A DNA stretch of 64,000 nt from Octopus vulgaris (taxonomy: Eukaryota): the NCBI GenBank assembly GCA_951406725.2, contig OX597814.1, positions 76,446,001 through 76,510,000 of the forward strand, in the 5' to 3' direction. Below are positions 8,182 through 52,107 of this stretch, piece after piece. The notes under the pieces were generated by a model. It was not told the origin of the DNA, searched no databases, and worked only from the letters and a program-made list of their open reading frames with translations. Each line of letters starts with the position of its first letter. The stretch's first letter is position 1. A program made the position numbers and the translations under genes.

Positions 8182-8985
8182 TGCAATAGATATTTTATTG
8201 GTTTGAACAATATTGACAGAATGACATCATCAGTCTTCAATTTTCAAGTTTACAACTGGCAAAAGGAAAAAAAAAAAAAAGAAGAATATTTAATCAAACA
8301 GTTTTGTGTAAATATGATGAAATTTCCCTGTCATTTTGTTCATCCCTTCAGGGTATGATGTTAATAATTCACAAACATATTTCTCCTCATGCATTTTGAG
8401 GACTGAAAGTGTACATGTGGGACAGAGATAACCATTTGGTGTACACAGCAGAATGCGCCAAACACAACTTGATTTATGTTGGTTGTACAACAGAACAACT
8501 AAACAAAAGATTCAATGGACACAGATAGGATGTCAAGCACAATAACAGTAGTTCGACAGAACTTGCTGAACATTTTACATTAAATGGCTGGAATTGTGAA
8601 AAAGACTTGAAAGTACATATTCTCAGAAAATATTCTGAATCTGCTACACTTTCAGTCCTCAAAATGCATGAGGAGAAATATGTTTATTAACATCACTCCC
8701 CAGAGGGGTGAACAAAATGACAGGAGAATTTCATCACATTTACACAAAACTATTTGATTGAATTTTCTTTTTCTTTTCTCCCACACCTTTTTTCTTTCTT
8801 TTTCTTTTTGCCAGTTGTAAACTTGAAAATTGAAGACTGATGAGGTTATTCTGTCAAGGTTGGAACACAGTTTGCCCCATTCAAATTTTTAAATTTAAAT
8901 TTCTATGTATCACTTTTCATTTTGAACTTGACAAAGACAGGCAAGCTGTTGCAATATTGTTCAAACCAATAAAATATCTTTTGCA
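8182..8985 (+). mobile_element. Penelope-like element remnant: GIY-YIG endonuclease fragment flanked by inverted pseudo-LTRs
   Basis: 8433-8640 translates HLVYTAECAKHNLIYVGCTTEQLNKRFNGHR*D...ELAEHF (VIY...YIG..R...H pattern). C-terminal EEKYVCELLTSYPEGMN is present in the inverted arm. Arms 8182-8413 and 8645-8985; CTGATGA at 8837-8843. Confidence 0.85.
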
Positions 8986-9309: not shown

Positions 9310-12300
9310 AGAACCCTTCTATTGGATTACAGCAAGTTTCTGTTCTCTTTATCTACTACTACCAAATCAGGCCTTCTAGCTTCTATTACTCTGTCAGTCT
9401 GAATGTTAAAGTCTCACATCTTGTATTTCTTACCTTCTAATACTTTACTAGGTTCATGTTCAGTATGTTCAAATCATAGCTTTCTACATAACTCCCTGTG
9501 GATTGCTCTCCCTAGATTGTCATGTCTTTTCTTGTATTCTTTCTGTGCCAGCATGCTACATTCACTTACAAAATGAGTAATGCTTTCCTCTTTTGATTCG
9601 GGTTTTTCTCTATCGTGGCTTTTAGCCAATTAGTCCTTAATGCTTGATCTTGTGCAGCAACTAACAAACTTTCTGTCTCCCTCTTCAGCTTTCCTTTCTG
9701 CAGCCATAACCATGTCTTACTACTACTACTACTACTTGCTGAAACTATCTTTTTGAATCTATCATGTTACATCTCCTGTCAGTCAGATAATTTCTGGGTT
9801 TTTTTCTTCAGATTTTTAAGTTTGTTTGGTGTTTTGGTTTCCCTATGTCTTGCTGTGACACTAGTAACTTTTAATAAACTCTTCACTGTTACCTACATAG
9901 GAGTCTATATCTACTCTAGCTAACTCCGTGCAGTCTTCTACTGATATTAACCCTCTTTCACCTTCCTTTCTAGGTAGATATAATCTTGCTACTCCTGACC
10001 TTGGGTGGAGTTTTCCATTCATATTGAATTCCTTCCTAGTTCTTCTGTCTAGCTTTGCTAATTCAGTTTTTGTCCAATCTACAAAAGCTGTTGAGTTATG
10101 ATATTGCTCAAGTATTTACAGCCTTCACTAGAATCAGACCATTTAGCTTTGACTTCATTACCCTTCTTACCCTTCTGATGTACTCCTTCTCAATTTTCGG
10201 TTTTCTTTCTGAAGTTAGTACTCTGTCAGATTCTAATGCTCCTAGATACTTATAACTCTCTCCTCTTTACAATGATTTTATTGTCTGGCCATCTGGTAAT
10301 TGGATGCCTTCGATGTTGACTACCTGTTCCCTTCTCATGACTAATATTGCACTCTTATCTATGCCAAATTCCATGCCTGTATCCTTCCTGAAGAGTTTTA
10401 CAGTCTGTATTAGGGAATCTCTCTTTTTCATTCTTACTAAAAAGCTGCAGATCATCCATGTTGAGCAAATGGTTAATTTTTCCCTTACTATTTCTGAACT
10501 GACACCCTGCATTGCCTTCCTTAATACTAAACTGAGGCTATCAAACATAAGACAAATATTAAAGGAGACAACTCCTCTAGGAAAACTCCTCTTTTGATAT
10601 TAACTTTCCCTAAGAGTGTGTCACCTGAGTATAGATCTACTTTCCATTTCTTCATGTTGCAGCTAATTAATTCTCTTATGTTGTCTACTATACTGAATAT
10701 ACTAAAACATTCACTTATCCATGCTCTTGTTAGATTTTTCTTTTTACTTCATTTAGAACTGCTTTATCTATATATAATAGATCTTGCGTTCCTCTAGCCT
10801 CCTGCAACCTTTCTGTTCTTCTGCTAGTAAACTCTGATTGTCAAGTTGCTCATAAATGCTTTCTGTTAACAGCTTCCACACTAATGGTAAGCAAGTGATT
10901 GGTTTATAGTTGCTAGCTGTATTACCCTTGCTCTTATCCTCCATAATGAGTATTGACCTCCCTCTAGTCATCCAATTTGGTATTATTCCTCCATTAAGGC
11001 AATCCTGAAGTTGTTCCCTCAGCCTCCCATGTAAACTACTGAATTCCTTTAGCCAGTACCCTTGAACTAATACTGGTCCTAGGCCCTTCCAATTCGGGAT
11101 TTTCCTAACACTTTACTCATTAATGCACTAGTTAATCTTAGATCTGGTTGCTTCTCACTCACTACTTCTTTCCTTATGTTCTCTATCCATACTGCATCTA
11201 CATTATGATTGACTGGTTTATCACAAATATTACTCCAGAACTTTCTAGCTTCCTCTGCATTAGGTTTCTCATTTTCAGTACTTTGTTTTCCACTATTTAT
11301 TTGGTCATAAAATCTCTGGTCTGTCTCAAATAATCTATTCTGTTAATACTAATCTATTCTTTTCTGATATCTGGGGAGCTTGCTTGCTACTGCTATGATA
11401 TGCTGTTTCAACTCTTCTATTATTGTCCCAAATCCTTTCTCTTTCACTAAGTATCTTTCCTTGAGGCAAGATTTGCATCTTGTGGCTCCTAACTTGTTTG
11501 TTTTCCAGGCTTCTATTCTACTCAGATCTTGTATTAAGGCTTCACTTTATTTTGTAGTCTTCTTTTTCACATTTGCTCTTTTTTAATATTTTCCTGTGAG
11601 CTATCTGATCTTCTGGTGATTACTCCCCCTCTTGCATAGATCAGTAAGTTAGTTTCTTCTATATCTTTAGTATCTGTCCTACTTATAACAGAATCTACTT
11701 TCCTAGTAATTTATTGTAGCTTCCTTCTGTTGCTTCCTTCGATGCCTTTTAATGCTGGCAATCTTTTTATTTCTTTACTCATTACTTCCTGCTACTCATC
11801 TAAAATCTTCTGACCTTCTTTACTTAAATCACTTAATTCATTGGTGCCAGTTGGCACTTCCTTATTGGTAGCACAATTATTATTTTTTCTTTTAAATTCT
11901 TCTGTGGTTTGAGCTATATCTCTTATGTTATTGTTTGTCTTTCTTTTCCAGTTCTCTTGTGATCTCTTCTACCTCCAATTCTGTCATCCACTTTCTTCTA
12001 ATAGCATTAACTTGATCAACTACTCTCTGCTCTGTTACTTTAAACATTCCCTTCTCTACCCAAAGTGTTAACATCCATTTTCTATAGCCCCTTCTTCTAG
12101 GTTCACTTTCTAAGCACTGTATTACTATCCTGTTTTCTTCACTGGTCCACTTCCTCCTCCTTACTCTATTATTTGCTTATGCTGTATTAGGATGACAGCT
12201 GTGGTCAGTCTGTATCTTTACTGATCCACTGTCAAGTGAAAGGCCTTCCTTTAAAGGTCCAGCTTCATTTTCGCTGTTACAACCAGAGTTCTTCGGAAAC

Positions 12301-12840: not shown

Positions 12841-12944
12841 ATGGAGGATTCATATGCTTCAGAAATTGAAAGAAAAGAGCTTCTACAAAAAAAGCACTAT
12901 TTCTTTCTTAATGAATTACAACAAATGGCTAGAGAGTTACCGAG
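12841..12944 (+). CDS. DGCR6: DGCR6 / gonadal protein gdl homolog, coding exon 1
   Basis: GCCATGG start context; MEDSYASEIERKELLQKKHYFFLNELQQMARELP; donor AG|GTAAGA at 12945 (phase 2); likely acceptor TTTAG at 12799 for a 5' UTR portion. Confidence 0.88.
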
Positions 12945-21500: not shown

Positions 21501-22069
21501 AATAATCTGAATGCCAAAGGGTTAATAACTCTTGTTGCTCTTTCCATTGTTACCACTGTGACTTCTAAATTCTTCTTGTTTCCTTTCCAACAGTATTATC
21601 ACTTTGTGAAGTTTTTTGACTTCATCTTGAATTTTGTGCACAGTACACTTTACTTATTCATGCTATTCCCTCAATCCACACTTTGCTTCTTGTTTTTAGA
21701 TTTGATTTTTCATATTGTTTATAAATAACTTTTGCTTTCATTTATCTTTTGGTGGCAATTGTTTATTTTCCCTAATTCCTTTTTTTACTCTTAGGCTGTC
21801 TAATAGTGATTTTGTCAGTTTTAGTTCTTGTCTGTCATTCTGTATAAGTTGTTCTTTTACTACTGTATAATAATTGTTCATGTAACCCTATGTCAATTTT
21901 ACTCAAAGTGAGAACTGAACCAACTATGATTGTGATTTATTTTATGTTATGTAACTTATTGGTTATAGATTTGCCTGTATGTTTATTAAAAAAAACCTTT
22001 TAAGTAAATGAAAAGTATATATATGAATAAATTGTTTAATCTTATTGCATTCTGCTCCACGCTTTTCAG

Positions 22070-22230
22070 CAAATACCAACAGCGAGTACCATATGATTTG
22101 CTGTCTGGCCTTGCTCATGCTTTGTTAGATGGTACGGTCTTTGAAATTGTCCAAGGCTTATCTGAAGTACAGCATTTGGAAGAGAAGAGTTTATTTAATC
22201 AGCGAGTGAAACAGACAAATGATCATAAAG
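22070..22230 (+). CDS. DGCR6: DGCR6 homolog, coding exon 2
   Basis: Acceptor TTTTCAG at 22069; (S)[45 protein letters not shown] matches the DGCR6 family [14 protein letters not shown] motif; donor G|GTACTG at 22231 (phase 1). Confidence 0.95.
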
Positions 22231-23611
22231 GTACTGTAGCTAATTGTTCTTGTTTTGCATTTTTCTGTGTACCCTTCCACTGTGATCTGGTTCTGTGATA
22301 GCAGATCTTTTCAGCTTAGGATGTTGAAATTTAATTTCTTTAATAATCCTGTTATTGGAATTTCATATGTACACATGTATTTCAGTTTTATGTAAATATT
22401 TGGTAGATTTTTTCCCAAAGTCATCTAAAAACCCAAAACTTGTCACAGCTGACTATCACTGATCTGGTGTTACCCTTTTCATTTGAAAGTTGTTGGAACA
22501 CTGTACCAGATTGTAAAAAATAGGGAGTTTCCACATATGTTGTTCTTTTGCTAAATTTTTATGCTCCTCTATATCAAGGGAAAATTCAATCTGATTCATG
22601 AACCCTGTTTTCATCCCTCTCTGAAAAAATTGAACTGTTATTAGTCCTTGTTATGCCACAACAATAATCCAGATATTCTGCATTCAGTGAGACACAGGCA
22701 GAGAAACTAAGCATGTGTTATTTCTTGCCTACACAATCAGCTGCAATGTCAGGAGTTTGTATCTGTATCCATGTCAAGACATTTAATCTTTTTTGACTAA
22801 GTCCTCATAACTCTAAATTATGTACTGCAAAGTGGCATAATTCATTGTTGTAATTAGTAACATTTTTATAACCATGATTAATTGGCTTGCAATTTTAAAT
22901 TCAGTTCCCTCTGTGATGAAATTAATTCTGTTCAGAATTATTTACCCTTTATCTGCTGAGTTTTAGTGGAGCTAGGTACCATCCTATGGATCCATGTAGT
23001 TCAAAAAAATTATTTTAAGGTGAAAAGTCAGATTGAAGTTGAAGTTTATTATTTCTCTAATGTAGATTCTCTGTTTCTGTTCAGCTGTTAATTAAAATAA
23101 TGACCAAGGAAAATTAGCAGGGATGACATTTCCATGGAAAATAATTAGTCACAATTATAACAAGCAAAGAAACTTCAATTAATCATGACTGTAAGAAGCA
23201 GGAGCAACAACTTTGTATATCAAAAATTCAAATGGGTTGACTGAATGAAAATGTCAGTTAATTGGAAATAGTTATGTAGTGAGGTAAAAAAAAAATGTAA
23301 ATCTGATCATTTCCATATATTTTGATGGCTTTGAACATAGTTTGATCCTATTAGACCTCCTCAATGAGGCACAGTCTTTACTGTGACTGGCTGATCTGTA
23401 AAATAAATTGCAATATCTATACACAGTAATGCAAAATCATAGCTTAATGACAGAGAAACTAACAAGGGATGTAGGTAGATTTTAGGTCTATTGATTCAGT
23501 TTTTTTCTCAATGTTTTTTACTTTAAAGTTATAAATTGGAAGAAGAAAAAAACCCCAATTTTTTGCCAAATAACCACATGCACTATATACTTGTTCTTCA
23601 CTTCAGGTTTA

Positions 23612-26689: not shown

Positions 26690-26796
26690 CCCAGAAGCAT
26701 GAAATGACAAAAAAACATAAGGAGTTGCTTCAAGCCTGTGAAAACAAACCTCACAATTTACCTCTGGTGCAAGCTCAAGTGGATCGTGAACGAGAG
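26690..26796 (+). CDS. DGCR6: DGCR6 homolog, coding exon 3 (not in the ORF track)
   Basis: Acceptor TTTCCTTAG at 26689; (A)QKHEMTKKHKELLQACENKPHNLPLVQAQVDRERE, comparable to vertebrate QACRPHNLPVLQAAQQRELE; donor GAG|GTAAAT at 26797 (phase 0). Confidence 0.92.
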
Positions 26797-27158
26797 GTAA
26801 ATCAGTTACTTCCCTCTCTATTATTGATTAGCTATTAGTTATTTCATTATCTCAATGTCACTGGTTGCACTTCATATTATAAACCAGAAAAGAAATTACA
26901 AGATATCTGGTGCCACTTTTATATGCAGTCTACCTGGCCATTTACATTTTATCATGCAATCTAACCCTCACCTTAATCATAAGCTAGATAAGGTCATTTC
27001 ATAGTGTAGACTGAAGTAGCATGAAATATCTATGCCCTTTTGTAACTCTATTACGTATGTCTGAGAGAGTGGTGTGTTGACAGAACCTTTAGAATATCAG
27101 ACAAATTACTTCACTGTATCTAATTTAAGCTCTTTTATGTTCTGAATTCAGATATATA

Positions 27159-27200
<42 letters not shown>

Positions 27201-27273
27201 AAAAAAAAATCAGGGTGAATACTTGATAACTGTAAGCACCTGTATATGCCAGTTAGTGGTGTAGGTGATAGGG

Positions 27274-27728
27274 TATATTTATCAAAAGAAAAACAGGATG
27301 CAAAGGATTTAGCGGTACATATGTTTCTGGCTTTATTGGACAGTTTATATCAATGCATAATTGATGTAACATATATGTCAATAGCCTTCTTCAGCCGCGT
27401 ACAATTACCACACCAAAGACATGTATTACATTATAGCAGGTTTGAGAAGAAGTTTGGGAAAAAGATGAGTTTCGTTGGGAATGCAAATCCTCATAGTCGT
27501 ATATGGCAAAGCGAGACACCAAAACAAAACGTCCATCGAAACTCGTCTTTTTCCCAAACTTCTTCTCAAACCTGCTATAATGTAGTACATGTCTTTGGTG
27601 TGGTAATTGTACGCGGCTGAAGAAGGCTATTGACATACATGTTACATCAATTATGCATTGATATAAACTGTCCAATAAAGCCAGAAACATATGTACCGCT
27701 AAATCCTTTGCATCCTGTTTTTCTTTTG

Positions 27729-27737
<9 letters not shown>
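27274..27737. mobile_element. Near-perfect ~205-bp inverted repeat (probable PLE pseudo-LTR pair) in DGCR6 intron 3
   Basis: 27274-27478 vs 27533-27737 are reverse complements with about 4 mismatches seen. This explains the twin ORFs 27246+ and 27391-. Flanked by (TA)n. Confidence 0.85.
27613..27699 (+). ncRNA. Type I hammerhead ribozyme candidate (mirror copy on minus in the left arm)
   Basis: Stem I GCGG(27613-16)/CCGC(27696-99); core CTGAAGA 27617-23; long stem II GGCTATTG..CAATAAAGCC; GAAA 27684-87; palindromic stem III ACATATGT; GUA triplet 27693-95. Confidence 0.72.
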
Positions 27738-27776
<39 letters not shown>

Positions 27777-27918
27777 TCATCATCATCATCATTTAACGTC
27801 CGCTTTCTATGCTAGCATGGGTTGGACGATTTAACTGAGGTCTGGCAAACCAGACTCCAATCTGATCTGGCAGAGTTTCTACAGCTGGATGCCCTTCCTA
27901 ACGCCAACCACTCCGAGA

Positions 27919-27966
<48 letters not shown>

Positions 27967-29042
27967 TCGTCATTTAATGTTTGCCTTCCATGCTAACATG
28001 CGTGGGACGGTTTCACAAGAGCCAGCCAGGCAGAAGCCTGCACCAGACTTCTGTGACTGTTTTGGCAGGATTTTTACAGCTAGATGCCTTTCCTAACACC
28101 AACCACTCAGCAGTGAGGACTTTGTGCTTTTTTGAAAATTTGCACTTAATCTTAAAATTTCTAAATCTGTGACAGCAACTAAAAAGATCTCTATCTCTTT
28201 CTTTTTTCACTTTTCTCATGGTAAACTTTCCCCCTCTCTATGCATTTTTAACATACTCTCTCCTACTCTTTATAAAAGTATATTGTTCACATTGAGTGTG
28301 TGTGTTTGTCAGTGTGCATGCATGCATGTCTGCAAAGAATTTCATTAGAGCGATAGAATGTTTTTAAAAAGGTATGTAAATGATAATTTATTTTAATAGC
28401 ATACTTTTCTGTTATTAAATGTTTTTCCTTACCACACACACACACACACACACAACCACACACACTTGATGTTGGATGGAGAAATTGAAAAATTAAATTA
28501 TTTAAAAATTAAATTGCAATGGACCACTCCATCATCATTCCAAAAGATGTGTTTATGGGGAGAAAAATATTGAAAAACATTATCACAGAGTGACAAAGAA
28601 ATGAGTAATGGAGCAGGTGGTCGTGGGATGTGCTAGAAACAACAGCTAAATCCCCCTTAAATCAAACAACTTTTCGTTTGAAAACTATTCAGAAATTGTA
28701 AACACAAACAAATTGCAAATTCAGACTGTCTGTATTTTGAAAATATGATTTCAAAATAAATTTGGAAAAAGCCAAAATTTTAGGATTTATGGAGGGGTGG
28801 AATTAATGAAAATATTAAAAAGGCTTTCGTTATTGCTTTTAAATTAAGTTTCATTTTCTGTTTGAAAATGAAGGAAGTGGGGATTGTGATTTGATTGCCA
28901 TTTCCAAAATTTTTTCTTTTTTTTAAACCTTCAAGTTTTCTCCCATTGTTTTTAAGTGCATATCTATCTATGTAAATATGTGTATATATGTGTAGCTCTA
29001 CATATATATATACACACACATACACATATGTATATATGCGTT

Positions 29043-29077
<35 letters not shown>

Positions 29078-29643
29078 CATTAAAAAAAAACAATTACATT
29101 TTCGCAACATATATAATTACATTTGTCCATATGTTTAATCAAATTGCCTTTAATATGGCCTTATTAGATTACAGTTAATGCAATGTGGCCTTCACACTTA
29201 CAAAATAATAATAATAATAATAATTTCTCAACACTAGTGTAGACCAGCAAATGTGACCAGCTTTGGTATGTTGTTTCCTTCATTGTCTTACATGTCTGTT
29301 GTTTTCATTGTTTAATTGTTTAGCCCCAGGTCAACACTGGTCAAGCAAATCTATGATGAATCATTCTGTCTTCTTCCTACATACAAGGAACCCAAGACCC
29401 ATGTTGTCTAAATTGTATTTTTTTTTAAAGACAATAGGATGTGATTCCAGAGAAATTTGGTTGCTATTTCTAGCAGGGTATTAGTGTGTGGTGGTACAAT
29501 GAAGGTAAAAAAGCTGTTTTTAGTCGGAGCATGATAGTTGCTGTTCTTCTTGGCAGTGTTGATTTTAATCCCAACAAAGTAAAACAAGATACAGTAATGT
29601 GAGTTTTATTTTTCAGTTCACTTTTGTATGGTGAGCTGAAATT

Positions 29644-29676
<33 letters not shown>

Positions 29677-29849
29677 ATATTTTGTTTAGACATAGTGATA
29701 CTAATAACCTGCTGTTTGCATTTTATGGTAGAAACAGCTGTGAGCTAATGAAGTTCATTCCATAATTCTTTATTCCCTTCTCATTTATTTTATTTCTACT
29801 ATATATATAAATGATGTAGCGCTCATGCCACTACATCATTTGTACATTG

Positions 29850-30235
29850 TAGAGCCTCTACCACCAGCATTGCCTAAACAACCTTAACATTAGATTCAGA
29901 ATTCATCAAAGGCCGAGGCCACATGCCCATACACCCTCAACACAATTCAGGCTCACAATGCATAAATTTACTGCAACAATTTCTTTTCTTCAACAGGCCC
30001 TACTCTATTTAACATTATCCCAAAACAAATCAAAGAAGAAAAAGATCCCATTGTCTTCAAGGGATACCAGATGAGCCACCTATACCTGGATACATCTCAG
30101 TCATCAACTCCCTGCTTGAATAGGCCATAATGCCACAAAATTTTACTTTAAAATGACTTGATAGATTCTATCAGGTGGTGCTGTTAAGTTAGACTTGCCC
30201 TGGGCCAACCTCTGGCTGAAACATATCTAAGTTAT
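29850..30235 (+). mobile_element. CR1/L2-group LINE 3' fragment
   Basis: Translates to NFFSSTGPTLFNIIPKQIKEEKDPIVFK...IPDEPPIPGY...NSLLE, typical of CR1-like ORF2 C-termini. Confidence 0.55.
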
Positions 30236-31794
30236 GTAAGTTGTACACACACATACACACACACGCACGCGTGCACGTGGTAGGCTGCTTTCAGTTTCCA
30301 TCTACTAAATCCATTTACAAGGTTAGATGTTTCGATTGTCTTGTTTACAATTTAATTCTCAATTCATACTGGAAGTCGATACCAATCCATTCAATTATAT
30401 TGTAGTAATACAACGAATTATATTACCGTTCCTAACAGATCAAATTTTTTAAATAGATTTTGTAGCTTGTTGATTTGATATGACTAATGGGTCACCTGTT
30501 AATTTGCGTTAAAACGGCTTCATTGCAGTGTAACCTAAACATAATTGTGTGACACCATCCGCATGATGAATAGTTGACAAGTGGATAGCAGGACCAACCG
30601 GTTGGCAGGTGGGGGAAAGAAAAACAGAAAAGGAAAAAAAAATTAGTTGATAAATATATTTGATATTTTTTCTTTGCGAAACGATGGGAGATAACTCTGG
30701 CCTTAGGTATCTTGCTGTGGTAGAAGTAAATGAATCTGTAAACGTGCAGAAATATCTATTTGCTGGCATAGAAAATTGAATTGTCTCCCGTTACAGCATT
30801 TAGTACTGCCATATCGCAAAGACTCGACTAATTGTAACTGAAGACAGCAAGGATGCCTATGCGTGGAGTTTCAACATGCTAAAAATAGAAACTAGGTTCC
30901 TTCAAAACAAAAAAATTCAACAAAAGAGAAACACAATGAACAGTGTAATTCTAGATATACTATACAAGAAGAGGCTAAATTGTCTTTGATCATAGGTCAC
31001 TCAATTAGGTTAAACAACCAATTGTAGCACTCCACTAATTACACTTCGTATGCTCTGTCTTCTTCCACAGACCGTCGTTGTGTGGTAAGAAGTTTGCTTC
31101 CCAACCTCATGGTCCTGAGTTCATTCCCACTGCGTGGCACCTTGGACAAATGTCTTCTACTATAGCCTTGGGCCAACAAAAGATTTGTGAGTGAATTTGG
31201 TAGACAAACTGAAAGAAATCCTTCGTGTGTATGTGTGTGTGATCATCATCATCATCATTTAATGTCTGCCTTCCATGCTGGCATAGGTGGGACAGTTTCA
31301 CAAGAGCCGACCAGGCAGAAGCCTGCACCAGACCTCTGTGACTGTTTTTACAGCTGGATGCCCTTCCAAACACCAACCACTTTACAATCTGGACTGGGTG
31401 CTTTTAAGTGGCACCTGCACTGACAGGATCACCAAGTACTTGCAAAACAAAAGAAACAAAAAATTTCAAGTTGGGAGGAGGTGATGGTGGAGGCATTGAA
31501 GGAGGTGATCTTGTGTTGAATGATGAAATGGTCATGTGTGTGTATATTTATGTGTGCATCTTTGTGTCTGTGTTTGTCCCCCATCTTCGTTTGACAATCA
31601 GTGTTGGTATGTTTACATTCCGGCAACTTAATGGTTCGACAAAAGAGACCAAGAGAGTAAGGACTAGGCTTACAAAGAATAAATCCTGGGCTTCATTTTT
31701 TCAACTAAAAAAAAATCCTTTAAGGTGATGTTGCAGCATGGCTGCAGTCAAATGACTGGAACAAGTAAAAGGAATATATATATATATATATATG

Positions 31795-32180
31795 AAGTGG
31801 GTGTGTGGCTTGCTTACCAACCACATAGTTCCGGGTTCATTCCCACTGTGTGGCACCTTGGGCAAGTGTCTTCTACTATAGCTTTGGGCCGACCAAAGCC
31901 TTGTGAGTGGATTTGGTAGACAGAAACTGAAAGAAGCCTGTCATATATATGTATGTGTGTGTATATGTTTGTGTGTCTGTGTTTCTCCCCCCAACATTGC
32001 TTGACAACCGATGGTGGTGTGTTTATGTCCCTGTAACTTAGCAATTCGGCAAAAGAGACTGATAGAATAAGTACTACGCTTACAAAGTATAAGTCCTGGG
32101 GTCGATTTGCTTGACTAAAGGCGGTGCTCCAGCATGGCTGCAGTCAAATGACTGAAACAAGTAAAAGAGAGTAAAAGATA
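31795..32180 (+). mobile_element. tRNA-derived SINE family B (others ~13060-13335-, 16800-17130-, 20270-20590-, 31075-31770+ split by an RTE tail, 40500-40917+, 44285-44670-, 47050-47275+, 53105-53480+, 62680-62895+)
   Basis: Recurrent unit GGTTC(A)NTCCCACTG.GTGGCACCTTGGGCAAGTGTCTTCTACTATAGC...(TG)n...CAGCATGGCTGCAGTCAAATGACTGAAACAAGTAAAAG. Confidence 0.8.
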
Positions 32181-32190
32181 TATATGTATA

Positions 32191-33344
32191 ATAGTGGGAT
32201 AGGCCAGTTTATGGGGTTACCCCAGGTTCTTGCCTTACAGTGTATCTTCAGACCCCCAGACACTGAGACATCTTTAAAATATGAAGAGGGTAAAGCCTCA
32301 TTTTTTAAGGGTAAAATCCTAGGTGATTATCTCCCTTCGCCATTGTCCATCAATCTTCGGCAACAACAGCAGAACTGGCAGTGGTGATAGCACTAGCACT
32401 ACCACATCGTCCACCAGCACCAGCAGCCCTGACTCCATCAACAATAACAGCAACACCGGTGGCAGTGCCAGCAGCAGCAGTGACAACAGCAACGATGACT
32501 GCCCCATAGGCAACACCTGCAGGGACGATAATATAACTGGTACCAACACCACTCCCAGCGATGCCAACACCAACAGCAGCAGCGACAACACCACAAGCAG
32601 CATCAGTGGCAATGGTAGCTGCAACAGCACCAACAACAGCAGCAGGCACAAAGACAGTAGCAAGAGGTGCAGTGGCAACGGTAGCAGCAACAACAGCAGC
32701 ACCTACAACAGCAACAAGCACAACAACATCATGCACCCACGAAAGTATGTGGAGTGCACTGGGAACTCTCTCAAACAGCATATTTCCAATCATCTATCCA
32801 CCTTCAGAGCCTCAGAAAAGAATGTAACATCGCTGGCCAGCCATATCTGGTAATTATGAGATTAAGAGATTGCATGAAAAATACTCGAGAACCCAGGCCC
32901 CTACATCAATGGGACTAAATGATGCACATTATGCATTACCAAACGCTTGAGGATCCTTAAAGACTCGCTTGTACCAGGATGCATCCTGAACTCTTGGATG
33001 GAGATTTTCAGACCATGCTTGCATTTTAAAATATTCCTGTTGGCCTTTTGGAATCCACATGGCGGCACTACAGCCAGAAACCAATAGCAAAGGCTGAAGT
33101 AAGACAATCATTTACTTCTGTGGTGCTTTAGTGACCACAAGATGGCAGCATGGCCAAAGATCAATGGACAATGGCGAAGGGAGATAATCACCTAGGATTT
33201 TACCTTTAGAAACGAGGCTTTACCCCCTCTGTATTTTAAAGAGGTCTCAGGCCAGCAGTGTTTGGGGTCTGAAGATACACCATAAGGCTAAATCCTTTAT
33301 GAGCGAAACCCAGGGTAACCCCATAAACCGACCTACCCCACTAT
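32191..33344 (+). mobile_element. Penelope-like element remnant: GIY-YIG C-terminal half between inverted pseudo-LTRs, in DGCR6 intron 3
   Basis: 32740-33060 reads KYVECTGNSLKQHISNHLSTF...TSLASHIW*L...KILENPGPY...CTLCITK...ILNSWMEIFRPCLHFKIFLL, matching the PLE pattern YIG.T..FK.R...H..SF...T.LS.HIW...PY...C.LC..EK...LN.R.E...C.H..KFLL. Arms 32191-32361 and 33153-33344. Confidence 0.85.
33263..33323 (+). ncRNA. Type I hammerhead ribozyme candidate
   Basis: Stem I TGGGGT(33263-68)/ACCCCA(33318-23); core CTGAAGA 33269-75; stem II CATAAGG/CCTTTATG; GAAA 33305-08; stem III ACC-CAG-GGT; GUA triplet 33315-17. Confidence 0.7.
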
Positions 33345-34093
33345 AGTATTAACTGCTCTACATCTTAGAGTGTGCTTCTCCTCCAGGTTTATGTATTTTT
33401 ACAAATTATCCTATATATATATACATATTACTACTTGTGTTTAAAACAAAAATATAATTTTCTTACCTAATCATAAGGCCTCAATTTTATAGATTAGTGA
33501 AAAATTAAGACAGCTTGATGTATATACCTTTCTAAGAAGTATCATTGATATAAGAAATGTAAATATAACTTGTGACTCTGTAATGAAGAATTTACATTTA
33601 CATAGTTCTGTTTTCACTTTCACTGCACAACTCCTATCAAATGTTTTCCACCATGCCCTTAAGTTGATCCAAGTCCTCTGAGTGGAACTGAGTACACAAA
33701 AATTGCAGTGAATCCTGTTGGACTATACCTGATCTAAAACTAATCCATTTTGCAGTTTAATACCAACACCTGGGTTTTGGCTATTGTTTAGTTTCAGGTC
33801 AGCCTTGATTAAGGAAACCTATGATCAAAGGCATTTCAACCATGGCTATTCATTATATTTTTATATCAGGGACTTCATTGAACTTCTTTTTATAAATTAT
33901 AGGATATGGTTATTAAGGAGGTTTGGTTGTTATTTTTAGCAGAATCCACATTATTCAAACATTCAGACTTTGTCCCCTTTCTGAAATAATATAATATGCT
34001 ATTTCCTACTGCAGCAGTTCTTCCTCCTGTTTCTCCCTCCTGTGTTGGAGGTCATGCAGAAACTTTTTTTATTAGTTATGTATCTCTTTTCAG

Positions 34094-34303
34094 ATTATGA
34101 ATAAAAGAATTGAAGAAGAGTCCAAGAAAAAAGATATAAAGACAATTATGGAACTAGATCAGAAAGTAATGGACCAGCAAGTTACTCTGGAAAAAGCTGG
34201 TGTTCCAGGCTTCTATGTAACCAACAATCCTGCTGAAATTCGCCTACAAATCTACCTCTTAGAATTTATTGTGAGACTTCGAAACACTGAGTTACCAACA
34301 TGA
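34094..34303 (+). CDS. DGCR6: DGCR6 homolog, last coding exon
   Basis: Acceptor CTCTTTTCAG at 34093; IMNKRIEEE...[41 protein letters not shown]...TGA. The spliced CDS is 104+161+107+210=582 nt = 193 aa + stop. Confidence 0.95.
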
Positions 34304-50624: not shown

Positions 50625-52107
50625 TTTAGTTAAGTATTAAGAAAAAAATTGGCAGGGTATCAGTTTAGAAATAGTAAAGGAAAAATTAATCATTTTCTCT
50701 ACATAGATGATCTGAAGTTTTTTTTAGTAAGAATAAAAAAGAGATAGATTCTTCAAAACTCTTCAACAAAGATATAGGTATGGAATTTGGCATAGATAAG
50801 AGTGAAATATTAGTCATAAAAAAGGGACAGGTAGTCAGAAGTGAAGGCATTCAATTACAGATGGCCAGACATTAAAATCACTGAAAGAAGGAGAAAGTTA
50901 TAAGTATCTAGGAGTATTAGAATCTGACAGAGTACTAACTATAGAAATGAAAAGGAAAATTAAGAAGGAGTACATCAGAAGGGTGAGGAAGCTAATGAAG
51001 TCAAAGCTAAATGATCTGAATCTAGTAAATTCTTGAGCAGTATTATTACTCAGATATTCAGCAGCTTTTGTAGATTGGACAAAATATGAATTAGTAAATC
51101 TAGATAGAAGAATTAGGAAGGAATTTAATATAAATGGTGAACTTCATCCTAAAGCAGGTATATCAAGATTGTATTTACCTAGAAAGGAATGTGGTAGAGA
51201 TTTAATATTAATAGAAGATTGTGTGGAGTTAGCTAGAGTAGATATAACCTCCCATGTAGGTAACACTGAGGAAATTTTATTGAGAGCTGCAAGTGTAACA
51301 GTGAGAGACAGGGAAACCAAAAACTAGACAAAAGAAGCAAGATAACCTAACTGGAAAGAGAAGGCTTTGGTAAATGCATGGTAAATTTCCAAAGATAGTT
51401 GGAGGAAATAGTAATAGTGAGACATGATTGTCGCTGCAGAAAAGAAGGCTGAAAAGGGAGATGGAAAGTGTGTTAGTGGCAGCTCAAGATCAGGCATTGA
51501 GGACTAATTGGTTAAAAGCCAAGGCAGATAAAATAACAGCTAGATTCTCAGTGTAGGTTATGTAAATCAAAGTAGGGAATTGTTGCTCATTTAGTTACTG
51601 AATGTAGTAAACTGGCACAGAAAGAATACAAGAAAAGACTTGACAACCTAGTGAGAAAAATCCTCTAGGAGCTATGTAGAAAGCTAGAATTTCACCATAC
51701 TGATAAATGGTGTGAACACGAACTTTGTAAAGTGCTAGTAAGTAAGAAATATAGGATGTGGATTTTAACATTCACTCTTGACAGAGTAATAGAAGCTAGA
51801 AGGCTTAATTTAGTAGTAGACAAAGAGAACAGAAAGTGCCAGTCAATTGACTTTTCAATCTCAAATGATGGGAAAGTTAATATTTGAAGTATAGAAAAAA
51901 TAGCAAAGTATCAGAATCTAGCCATTGAGTGGAAAGTGCAGGTAAAAATGTATCCTTGTAGTTATAGGTGCATTAGGAACAATTCCTAAAGATTTAAACA
52001 GATGGATAGAAAAATAGGCATAAAACCTAGTTTGATACATCTCCAGAAAACAGTAATATTAGGAATAGCTAGGATACTTAGGAAGGTTCTTAGCATCTAA
52101 GGTTACT

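Follow-up and report, generated by a model that had tools for sequence, protein, structure and literature searches.

Penelope-like elements (PLEs) have been described as leaving insertions that comprise an inverted, 5'-truncated copy with a tail at one end, that favor (TA)n and that carry a hammerhead in the pLTR, such that a layout of inverted copy plus single tail is already published for these elements (PMC8557442). The hammerheads of metazoan PLEs are of type I, with a 4-bp stem I, a larger-than-usual stem II, a highly conserved G10.1-C11.1 pair and a stem III that is short, palindromic and of a form fit for dimers, a type reported to act in dimeric form and with low activity; in Schistosoma mansoni, pairs of such motifs lie 100-700 bp apart on opposite strands (PMC4209133). 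In vitro, a PLE protein was found to cut and extend both strands, starting at two sites, one on each side of the tail, while the hammerhead of the Anolis PLE cut only in the presence of the protein and was dispensable for insertion (PMC11167929). Here, a locus in the genome of Octopus vulgaris is compared with these systems.

The window considered (i.e., the whole stretch of DNA analyzed, 64,000 nt of contig OX597814.1) contains DGCR6 on the + strand, with coding exons at 12841-12944, 22069-22230, 26691-26796, and 34094-34293. Pfam PF07324 matched window positions 22038-22238 and 34091-34291, corresponding to exons 2 and 4, while exons 1 and 3 were placed by inspection of the translation and splice sites, with exon 1 having been located by means of a motif. 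The last DGCR6 intron (26797-34093) contains an inverted repeat (27274-27478/27533-27737), the arms of which are 205 nt long, 98% complementary and separated by a spacer of 54 nt. A preliminary description had spoken of a hairpin of some 205 bp, with arms differing at about four positions, that begins approximately 480 nt past DGCR6 exon 3. Indeed, four mismatches were counted (27536/27475, 27545/27466, 27585/27426, and 27638/27373) and the left arm begins 477 nt after exon 3. As the mismatch at 27536/27475 falls in the inversion junction, the true arms are 201 bp long and present three differences. The double-stranded RNA of about 200 bp that had also been proposed for the pre-mRNA follows from the sequence, with a hairpin duplex of this length being predicted at a folding energy of -356 kcal/mol. 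The left boundary given earlier, 27274, is correct for the arm repeat, whereas the element itself reaches about 70 nt further left (to approximately 27200), in the left copy only. Likewise, the age previously assigned, "very young," stands in relative terms only, with the counts of rare variants being 2 (in 205 nt) and 3 (in 334 nt), as compared to a median of 2.1% across 64 copies. The features of the locus are as follows:

26691-26796, + strand: third coding exon of DGCR6 (AG/GT borders, in-frame translation, position between the two Pfam PF07324 matches).
27152-27196, no strand: (TA)n microsatellite bordering the target on its left (from sequence).
27200-27536, - strand: main copy, the 5'-truncated 3' end (pLTR) of a PLE, finishing at the long 3' end (comparison with other loci).
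27200-27273, - strand: PLE "tail" of about 70 nt between the short and long 3' ends, in the left arm only (comparison of copy ends at 28 loci).
27312-27398, - strand: type I hammerhead motif within the main copy and antisense to DGCR6, with cleavage predicted after 27316 (from sequence).
27479-27532, - strand: 54-nt hairpin loop, ordinary family sequence found upstream of the hammerhead and present once (orientation of genome matches).
27533-27536, no strand: head-to-head inversion junction with CCA microhomology (from sequence).
27537-27737, + strand: inverted second copy, more 5'-truncated and finishing at the short 3' end (inverted-repeat and copy-end comparison).
27613-27699, + strand: sense-strand type I hammerhead motif, with cleavage predicted after 27695 (sequence and fold).
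27733-27774, no strand: (TA)n microsatellite bordering the target on its right (from sequence).
34094-34293, + strand: last coding exon of DGCR6 (Pfam PF07324, translation), the insertion sitting in the 7.3-kb intron before this exon.

We are highly confident that the locus is the 5'-truncated end of a PLE lying head-to-head with a shorter mirror copy within a (TA)n tract. As the element's own hammerhead is predicted to stay locked in the hairpin, it is likely inert with regard to DGCR6. Ordinary transposon debris, rather than a DGCR6 switch, is thus the most likely description of the locus.

The insertion belongs to a dispersed family. A search of the genome with 27479-27730 as query returned 1079 candidates, with the 40 that were scored yielding 85 matches; the long matches among these copies were mostly 95-98% identical. 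Query bases 1-58 matched other copies in an orientation opposite to that of bases 55-252. Since the spacer elsewhere runs opposite to the right arm, the natural unit is a minus-strand copy extending leftwards from 27536, with the right arm corresponding to an inverted second copy. The main copy (27200-27536) shares 94-98% identity with the full unit at other loci (here given L numbers) and, at L067, L104, L105, and L108, the unit joins GIY-YIG/RT coding sequence without a break. A 26-mer taken from the hammerhead has 214 exact matches in the genome (control: 0). Among the 100 of these 214 matches that were listed and counted by eye, 22 make up 11 head-to-head pairs within 3.1 kb, the DGCR6-intron locus included, while no same-strand tandem pair within 1 kb was seen. 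The same 100 matches include at least one tail-to-tail pair of family hammerheads (C4:11277839-11278124), the reverse of the usual layout. The position of the junction varies between head-to-head pairs at other loci; at L002 and L003, it lies within about 20 nt of that in the DGCR6 intron, a proximity suggestive of a favored site of joining close to the CCA microhomology.

Copy ends were next surveyed at 28 distinct best-scoring loci (two duplicates having been dropped from 30). The 42 ends so obtained fell largely at two sites about 70 nt apart, with 18 being long, 17 short, and 7 other; L028 was scored as a long end with an internal deletion. Copies in both orientations were present at 13 of the 28 loci, a proportion that derives from top-scoring loci, where pairs may be over-represented, while 15 presented a single orientation within the fetched flank. 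In all 13 paired loci, the long end, and hence the tail, was found on exactly one arm, with the other arm finishing at the short end (10 loci) or stopping earlier (3 loci). Most copies in the survey have TA-rich 3' flanks, and at the DGCR6-intron locus (TA)n is found on both sides.

Upstream of the unit at L067, L064, and L068, some 3 kb of low-complexity sequence intervenes before the C-terminus of a GIY-YIG-type ORF is reached, with L067 being continuous from this C-terminus to the unit. When the C-terminal peptide of the ORF (the endonuclease peptide) served as query, 18,664 genome candidates were returned, of which 150 were scored. At L108, the unit (92.5% identity over 334 nt) is preceded by coding pieces that match residues 128-842 of P0001 (84% over residues 128-472), and an inverted truncated copy abuts the 5' break, as is also the case at L105 and L106. 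P0001 is an intact 842-residue ORF from a sister family, the unit of which is 76-80% alike to that of the DGCR6-intron subfamily. The protein contains the motifs FDIASYY, MGSSDS, YRDD, VIY..YIG, and C..C..C.H, with CNCRCASECPLQGAC appearing before the GIY-YIG motif; such a cysteine linker does not separate Neptune from Nematis. Unit-like sequence flanks the 842-residue ORF on both sides at L109 and L111 and, in the intact L111 copy, a related tail is found ahead of the ORF start. As Pfam recognized neither RT nor GIY-YIG in P0001 or the L068 fragment, and as a PDB search with the PLE protein found nothing useful, the assignment of these domains rests on the motifs and on the Atlas neighbors of P0001, which have GIY-YIG and RVT_1. 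No intact ORF was found among the fetched copies of the exact DGCR6-intron subfamily and the DGCR6-intron locus contains no coding part, the features of endonuclease-bearing (EN+) PLEs being those of the family. The sister family is young, with several intact 842-residue frames (e.g., L109, C4:50170174; L110, C31:2487334; L111, C11:64240160), and, judging from these frames, was probably active recently. A 664-residue ORF in L063 and an ORF beside L027 were set aside as belonging to other PLE families inserted alongside. Indeed, PLEs from different families were seen to have inserted right next to, or within, one another at (TA)n tracts in L027:1776-1860, L063, and L062.

With the inverted-pLTR insertions of EN-bearing PLEs of the C-terminal-EN clades Neptune and Nematis, the family shares the inverted copy, the single tail, the (TA)n target, and the pLTR hammerhead, as well as, judging from the motifs of P0001, an RT followed by a cysteine linker and then GIY-YIG with CCHH. 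By contrast, the tail is about 70 nt long, rather than the 30-40 nt given for published PLEs, and the subfamily differs from Neptune and Nematis in the ~3 kb of low-complexity 3' sequence that separates the ORF from the hammerhead (PMC8557442). The family also resembles Poseidon PAc of Anolis carolinensis in having a two-end tail (in PAc, two internal RT start sites), in an AT-rich target, in the presumed cutting and extension of both strands, and in a pLTR hammerhead located immediately ahead of, or overlapping, the ORF start. Unlike P0001, however, the Poseidon clade is reported to be without the cysteine linker, and the insertion mechanism, shown in vitro for PAc, is inferred for the DGCR6-intron element (PMC11167929). 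Finally, animal non-LTR retrozymes share the type I hammerhead and a PLE ancestry with the family, yet are non-coding and arranged head-to-tail in tandem, whereas the DGCR6-intron element is head-to-head and comes from a coding family (bioRxiv 10.64898/2026.07.22.740005).

In terms of mechanism, the element's protein would have introduced nicks into the two strands of a (TA)n tract, with two cDNAs then being primed from the element's RNA, one per start site. Synthesis of both cDNAs would have ended prematurely, at lengths of about 335 and 200 nt, and their 5' ends would have been joined head-to-head through the CCA microhomology. Upon transcription of DGCR6, the arms would zip into the 201-bp duplex, which, as with other young repeats, would probably undergo editing by ADAR before being discarded together with the intron.

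The hammerhead motif on the + strand is composed of GCGG (27613-16), CTGAAGA (27617-23), a 60-nt stem II, GAAA (27684-87), CATATG, TA, and CCGC (27696-99). Stem I comprises 4 bp, stem II opens with A27624.A27683 (A10.1.A11.1), and cleavage is predicted after 27695, at the GUA site. Stem III comprises 2 bp and a 4-nt loop, is palindromic (ACAUAUGU) and is missing from the centroid fold; as a perfect 8-nt palindrome, it would pair in a dimer at -7.0 kcal/mol. The intact core that had been ascribed to the sense strand was recovered segment by segment, with its cleavage being a prediction. The minus strand contains the same hammerhead (27398-27312). The minimum-energy structure of the isolated 87-nt motif is a hammerhead, one no more stable than shuffled sequences (z 0.10). 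No match to the Rfam hammerhead models at gathering score was obtained in the 64-kb window, and the eight weak Rfam matches returned, hairpin-like in shape and far below gathering scores, included no hammerhead.

The preliminary description had drawn attention to the unusual length of stem II and to its A.A mismatch. Both are present, but neither is peculiar to the DGCR6 intron, since both were encountered throughout the family. An intact core was found in 67 of the 78 distinct copies that cover the motif. In these 67 cores, the stem II region measures 60 nt in 48 copies, 51 nt in 7, 61-66 nt in 11, and 36 nt in 1; a region of 51-66 nt contrasts with the 7-8 bp of metazoan PLE hammerheads (PMC4209133). 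Similarly, instead of the conserved G10.1-C11.1 pair, which is absent from the DGCR6-intron locus, the 67 cores present A.A (51), A.C (12), A.G (2), or G-C (2) at these positions (PMC4209133). The 5' A of the family may correspond to the extra nucleotide after position 9 in the numbering of that report, leaving an extra base before G12 (PMC4209133). Across 64 copies, the minor-allele fraction was 0.008 in the 14 core columns, as compared to 0.026-0.041 elsewhere, and this low variation suggests selection on the hammerhead core in an active lineage. As for stem II, 87% of cells were paired in 11 copies and three pairs had changed on both sides, covariation that was not above that of shuffled alignments (85/500). 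A long stem II is likewise seen in further PLE-type motifs of the fetched DNA, including several by L027, L062, and L063 of 54-60 nt and with a G-C closing pair. When L085:122-217 and L112:9644-9780 were compared with L109, L060, and the window, positions 10.1/11.1 proved to be G-C in those relatives that diverge most, A.C in the intermediate families as well as the sister family, and A.A in the DGCR6-intron subfamily. It is tentatively proposed, as a possibility we consider on balance doubtful, that this PLE lineage has a working hammerhead variant that lost G10.1-C11.1, the catalytic core of which is under selection and which would cut as a dimer or together with the element's protein. No account of this PLE family or of the A.A variant appeared among the papers listed for octopus hammerheads and for the 10.1/11.1 pair.

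Elsewhere in the window, additional repeats were noted. The same DGCR6 intron holds an older PLE remnant of another family (32191-33344), with inverted arms that are 76% alike, a broken GIY-YIG trace (32746-33054; E 1e-4 against P0001), a sense-strand hammerhead motif (33263-33323) with a 6-bp stem I, U.C at 10.1/11.1 and a near-palindromic stem III, and an antisense partner, the core of which is damaged. A third inverted pair (8213-8857), also older and 81% alike, surrounds a weak GIY-YIG-like trace (E 0.62) and contains decayed CTGATGA motifs in both arms. With three such PLE structures in the window, structures of this sort are to be seen as background in this genome. A 1.2-kb dispersed repeat of 76% likeness is also present at 9337-10533 and 50628-51835, in opposite orientations.

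Of the other explanations considered, one in which the hairpin exerts a passive and modest effect in cis on DGCR6, be it through double-stranded RNA, editing, retention of the last intron, or slower splicing, yet without ribozyme action, fares best, although we deem it unlikely. A near-perfect duplex of 201 bp does lie 477 nt from a splice donor, and young repeats are the main targets of editing in metazoans (PMC9989829), such that editing of the hairpin by ADAR is plausible. However, both splice sites lie outside the duplex, the 7.3-kb intron already contains an older inverted PLE remnant, and nothing sets the DGCR6-intron copy apart from its family.

The preliminary description had gone further, proposing a self-cleaving site that editing would unmask, namely that ADAR would open the hairpin, the hammerhead would cut after 27695 and the output of DGCR6 would be lowered or altered. 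On the sense strand, no part of the catalytic core is missing, the minimum-energy fold of the isolated 87-nt motif is a hammerhead, and the site lies inside a DGCR6 intron. Still, when the region 27203-27740 was folded, the best structure had an energy of -376 kcal/mol, as compared to -250 kcal/mol with the hammerhead formed, a cost of 126 kcal/mol in a calculation that considers equilibrium thermodynamics without proteins. When 10, 20, 30, 50, or 70% of the non-core adenosines were rendered unpairable (six draws per level, a treatment harsher than real I.U pairs), minimal costs of 101, 80, 66, 58, and 37 kcal/mol, respectively, were obtained, and the cost was higher still when A was read as G. 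Moreover, the chance of all five core adenosines remaining unedited is 0.33 at 20% editing, 0.17 at 30%, and 0.03 at 50%. Because the gap in folding energy stays at 37 kcal/mol or more, even with 70% of non-core adenosines unpairable, and because the core adenosines would rarely all escape, unmasking by editing is not supported. Even in the right arm alone, the hammerhead fold costs 8.4 kcal/mol. Furthermore, transcription reaches the antisense arm first, and by the time the hammerhead emerges, 76 nt of the right arm would already be able to pair. The G10.1-C11.1 pair is absent and stem III is only 2 bp long; one PLE hammerhead that was tested was inactive as a monomer (PMC4209133), and another was inactive without its protein (PMC11167929). 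No copy finishes at the cleavage site followed by TA, as compared to 2 and 0 copies at control sites, with L021 finishing before the cleavage site. Nor was a hyperediting signature seen in the 64 genomic copies of at least 85% identity, where rare variants comprised 44 A>G and 63 T>C, as compared to 62 G>A and 60 C>T, with the DGCR6-intron locus contributing a single A>G. In L066:1635-1968, T>C on the sense strand of the element accounts for 6 of 8 rare variants, the highest value for a single copy, which is at most a weak hint and not hyperediting. An editing-gated ribozyme acting on DGCR6 is considered highly improbable.

Perfect palindromes beside microsatellites are a known assembly hazard, as would apply were the locus a fold-back chimera. 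Yet, the arms differ at three places, each private to one arm, they finish at two different family-typical 3' ends, their flanks lack mirror symmetry, and the same asymmetric layout recurs, with different junctions, at 12 other fetched loci. Among the contigs listed (24 of 40 pieces, three other samples), none bridges the junction at 27536/27537, which is no proof of absence, and flank contigs from other samples extend no further than the (TA)n tract; a further sample, possibly of RNA, contributed no contig to the junction stretch. An assembly artefact is given very little credence.

Lastly, a short non-coding unit with a type I hammerhead and long inverted arms might bring to mind a non-LTR retrozyme or, with the arms as terminal inverted repeats, a MITE or foldback DNA transposon, but these can scarcely be entertained. 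No same-strand tandem pair within 1 kb was seen among the 100 matches listed, copies are variably 5'-truncated and reach kilobases into RT/GIY-YIG sequence, the arms finish at different sites, and 15 of 28 loci have one orientation only within the fetched flank. The coding link largely refutes such readings.

A host switch at DGCR6 would matter if true, yet the evidence points away from one. The points left to be made are modest ones. The A.A/A.C hammerhead offers an inexpensive way of testing to what extent the fold can do without its closing pair. The strict rule of one tail per pair (13/13) fits a two-primer model of PLE insertion. Finally, with at least 11 pairs among the 100 matches listed for a single subfamily, PLE insertions routinely place near-perfect hairpins of 200 bp in introns of this genome, and such intronic hairpins are likely to represent a steady supply of ADAR substrates.
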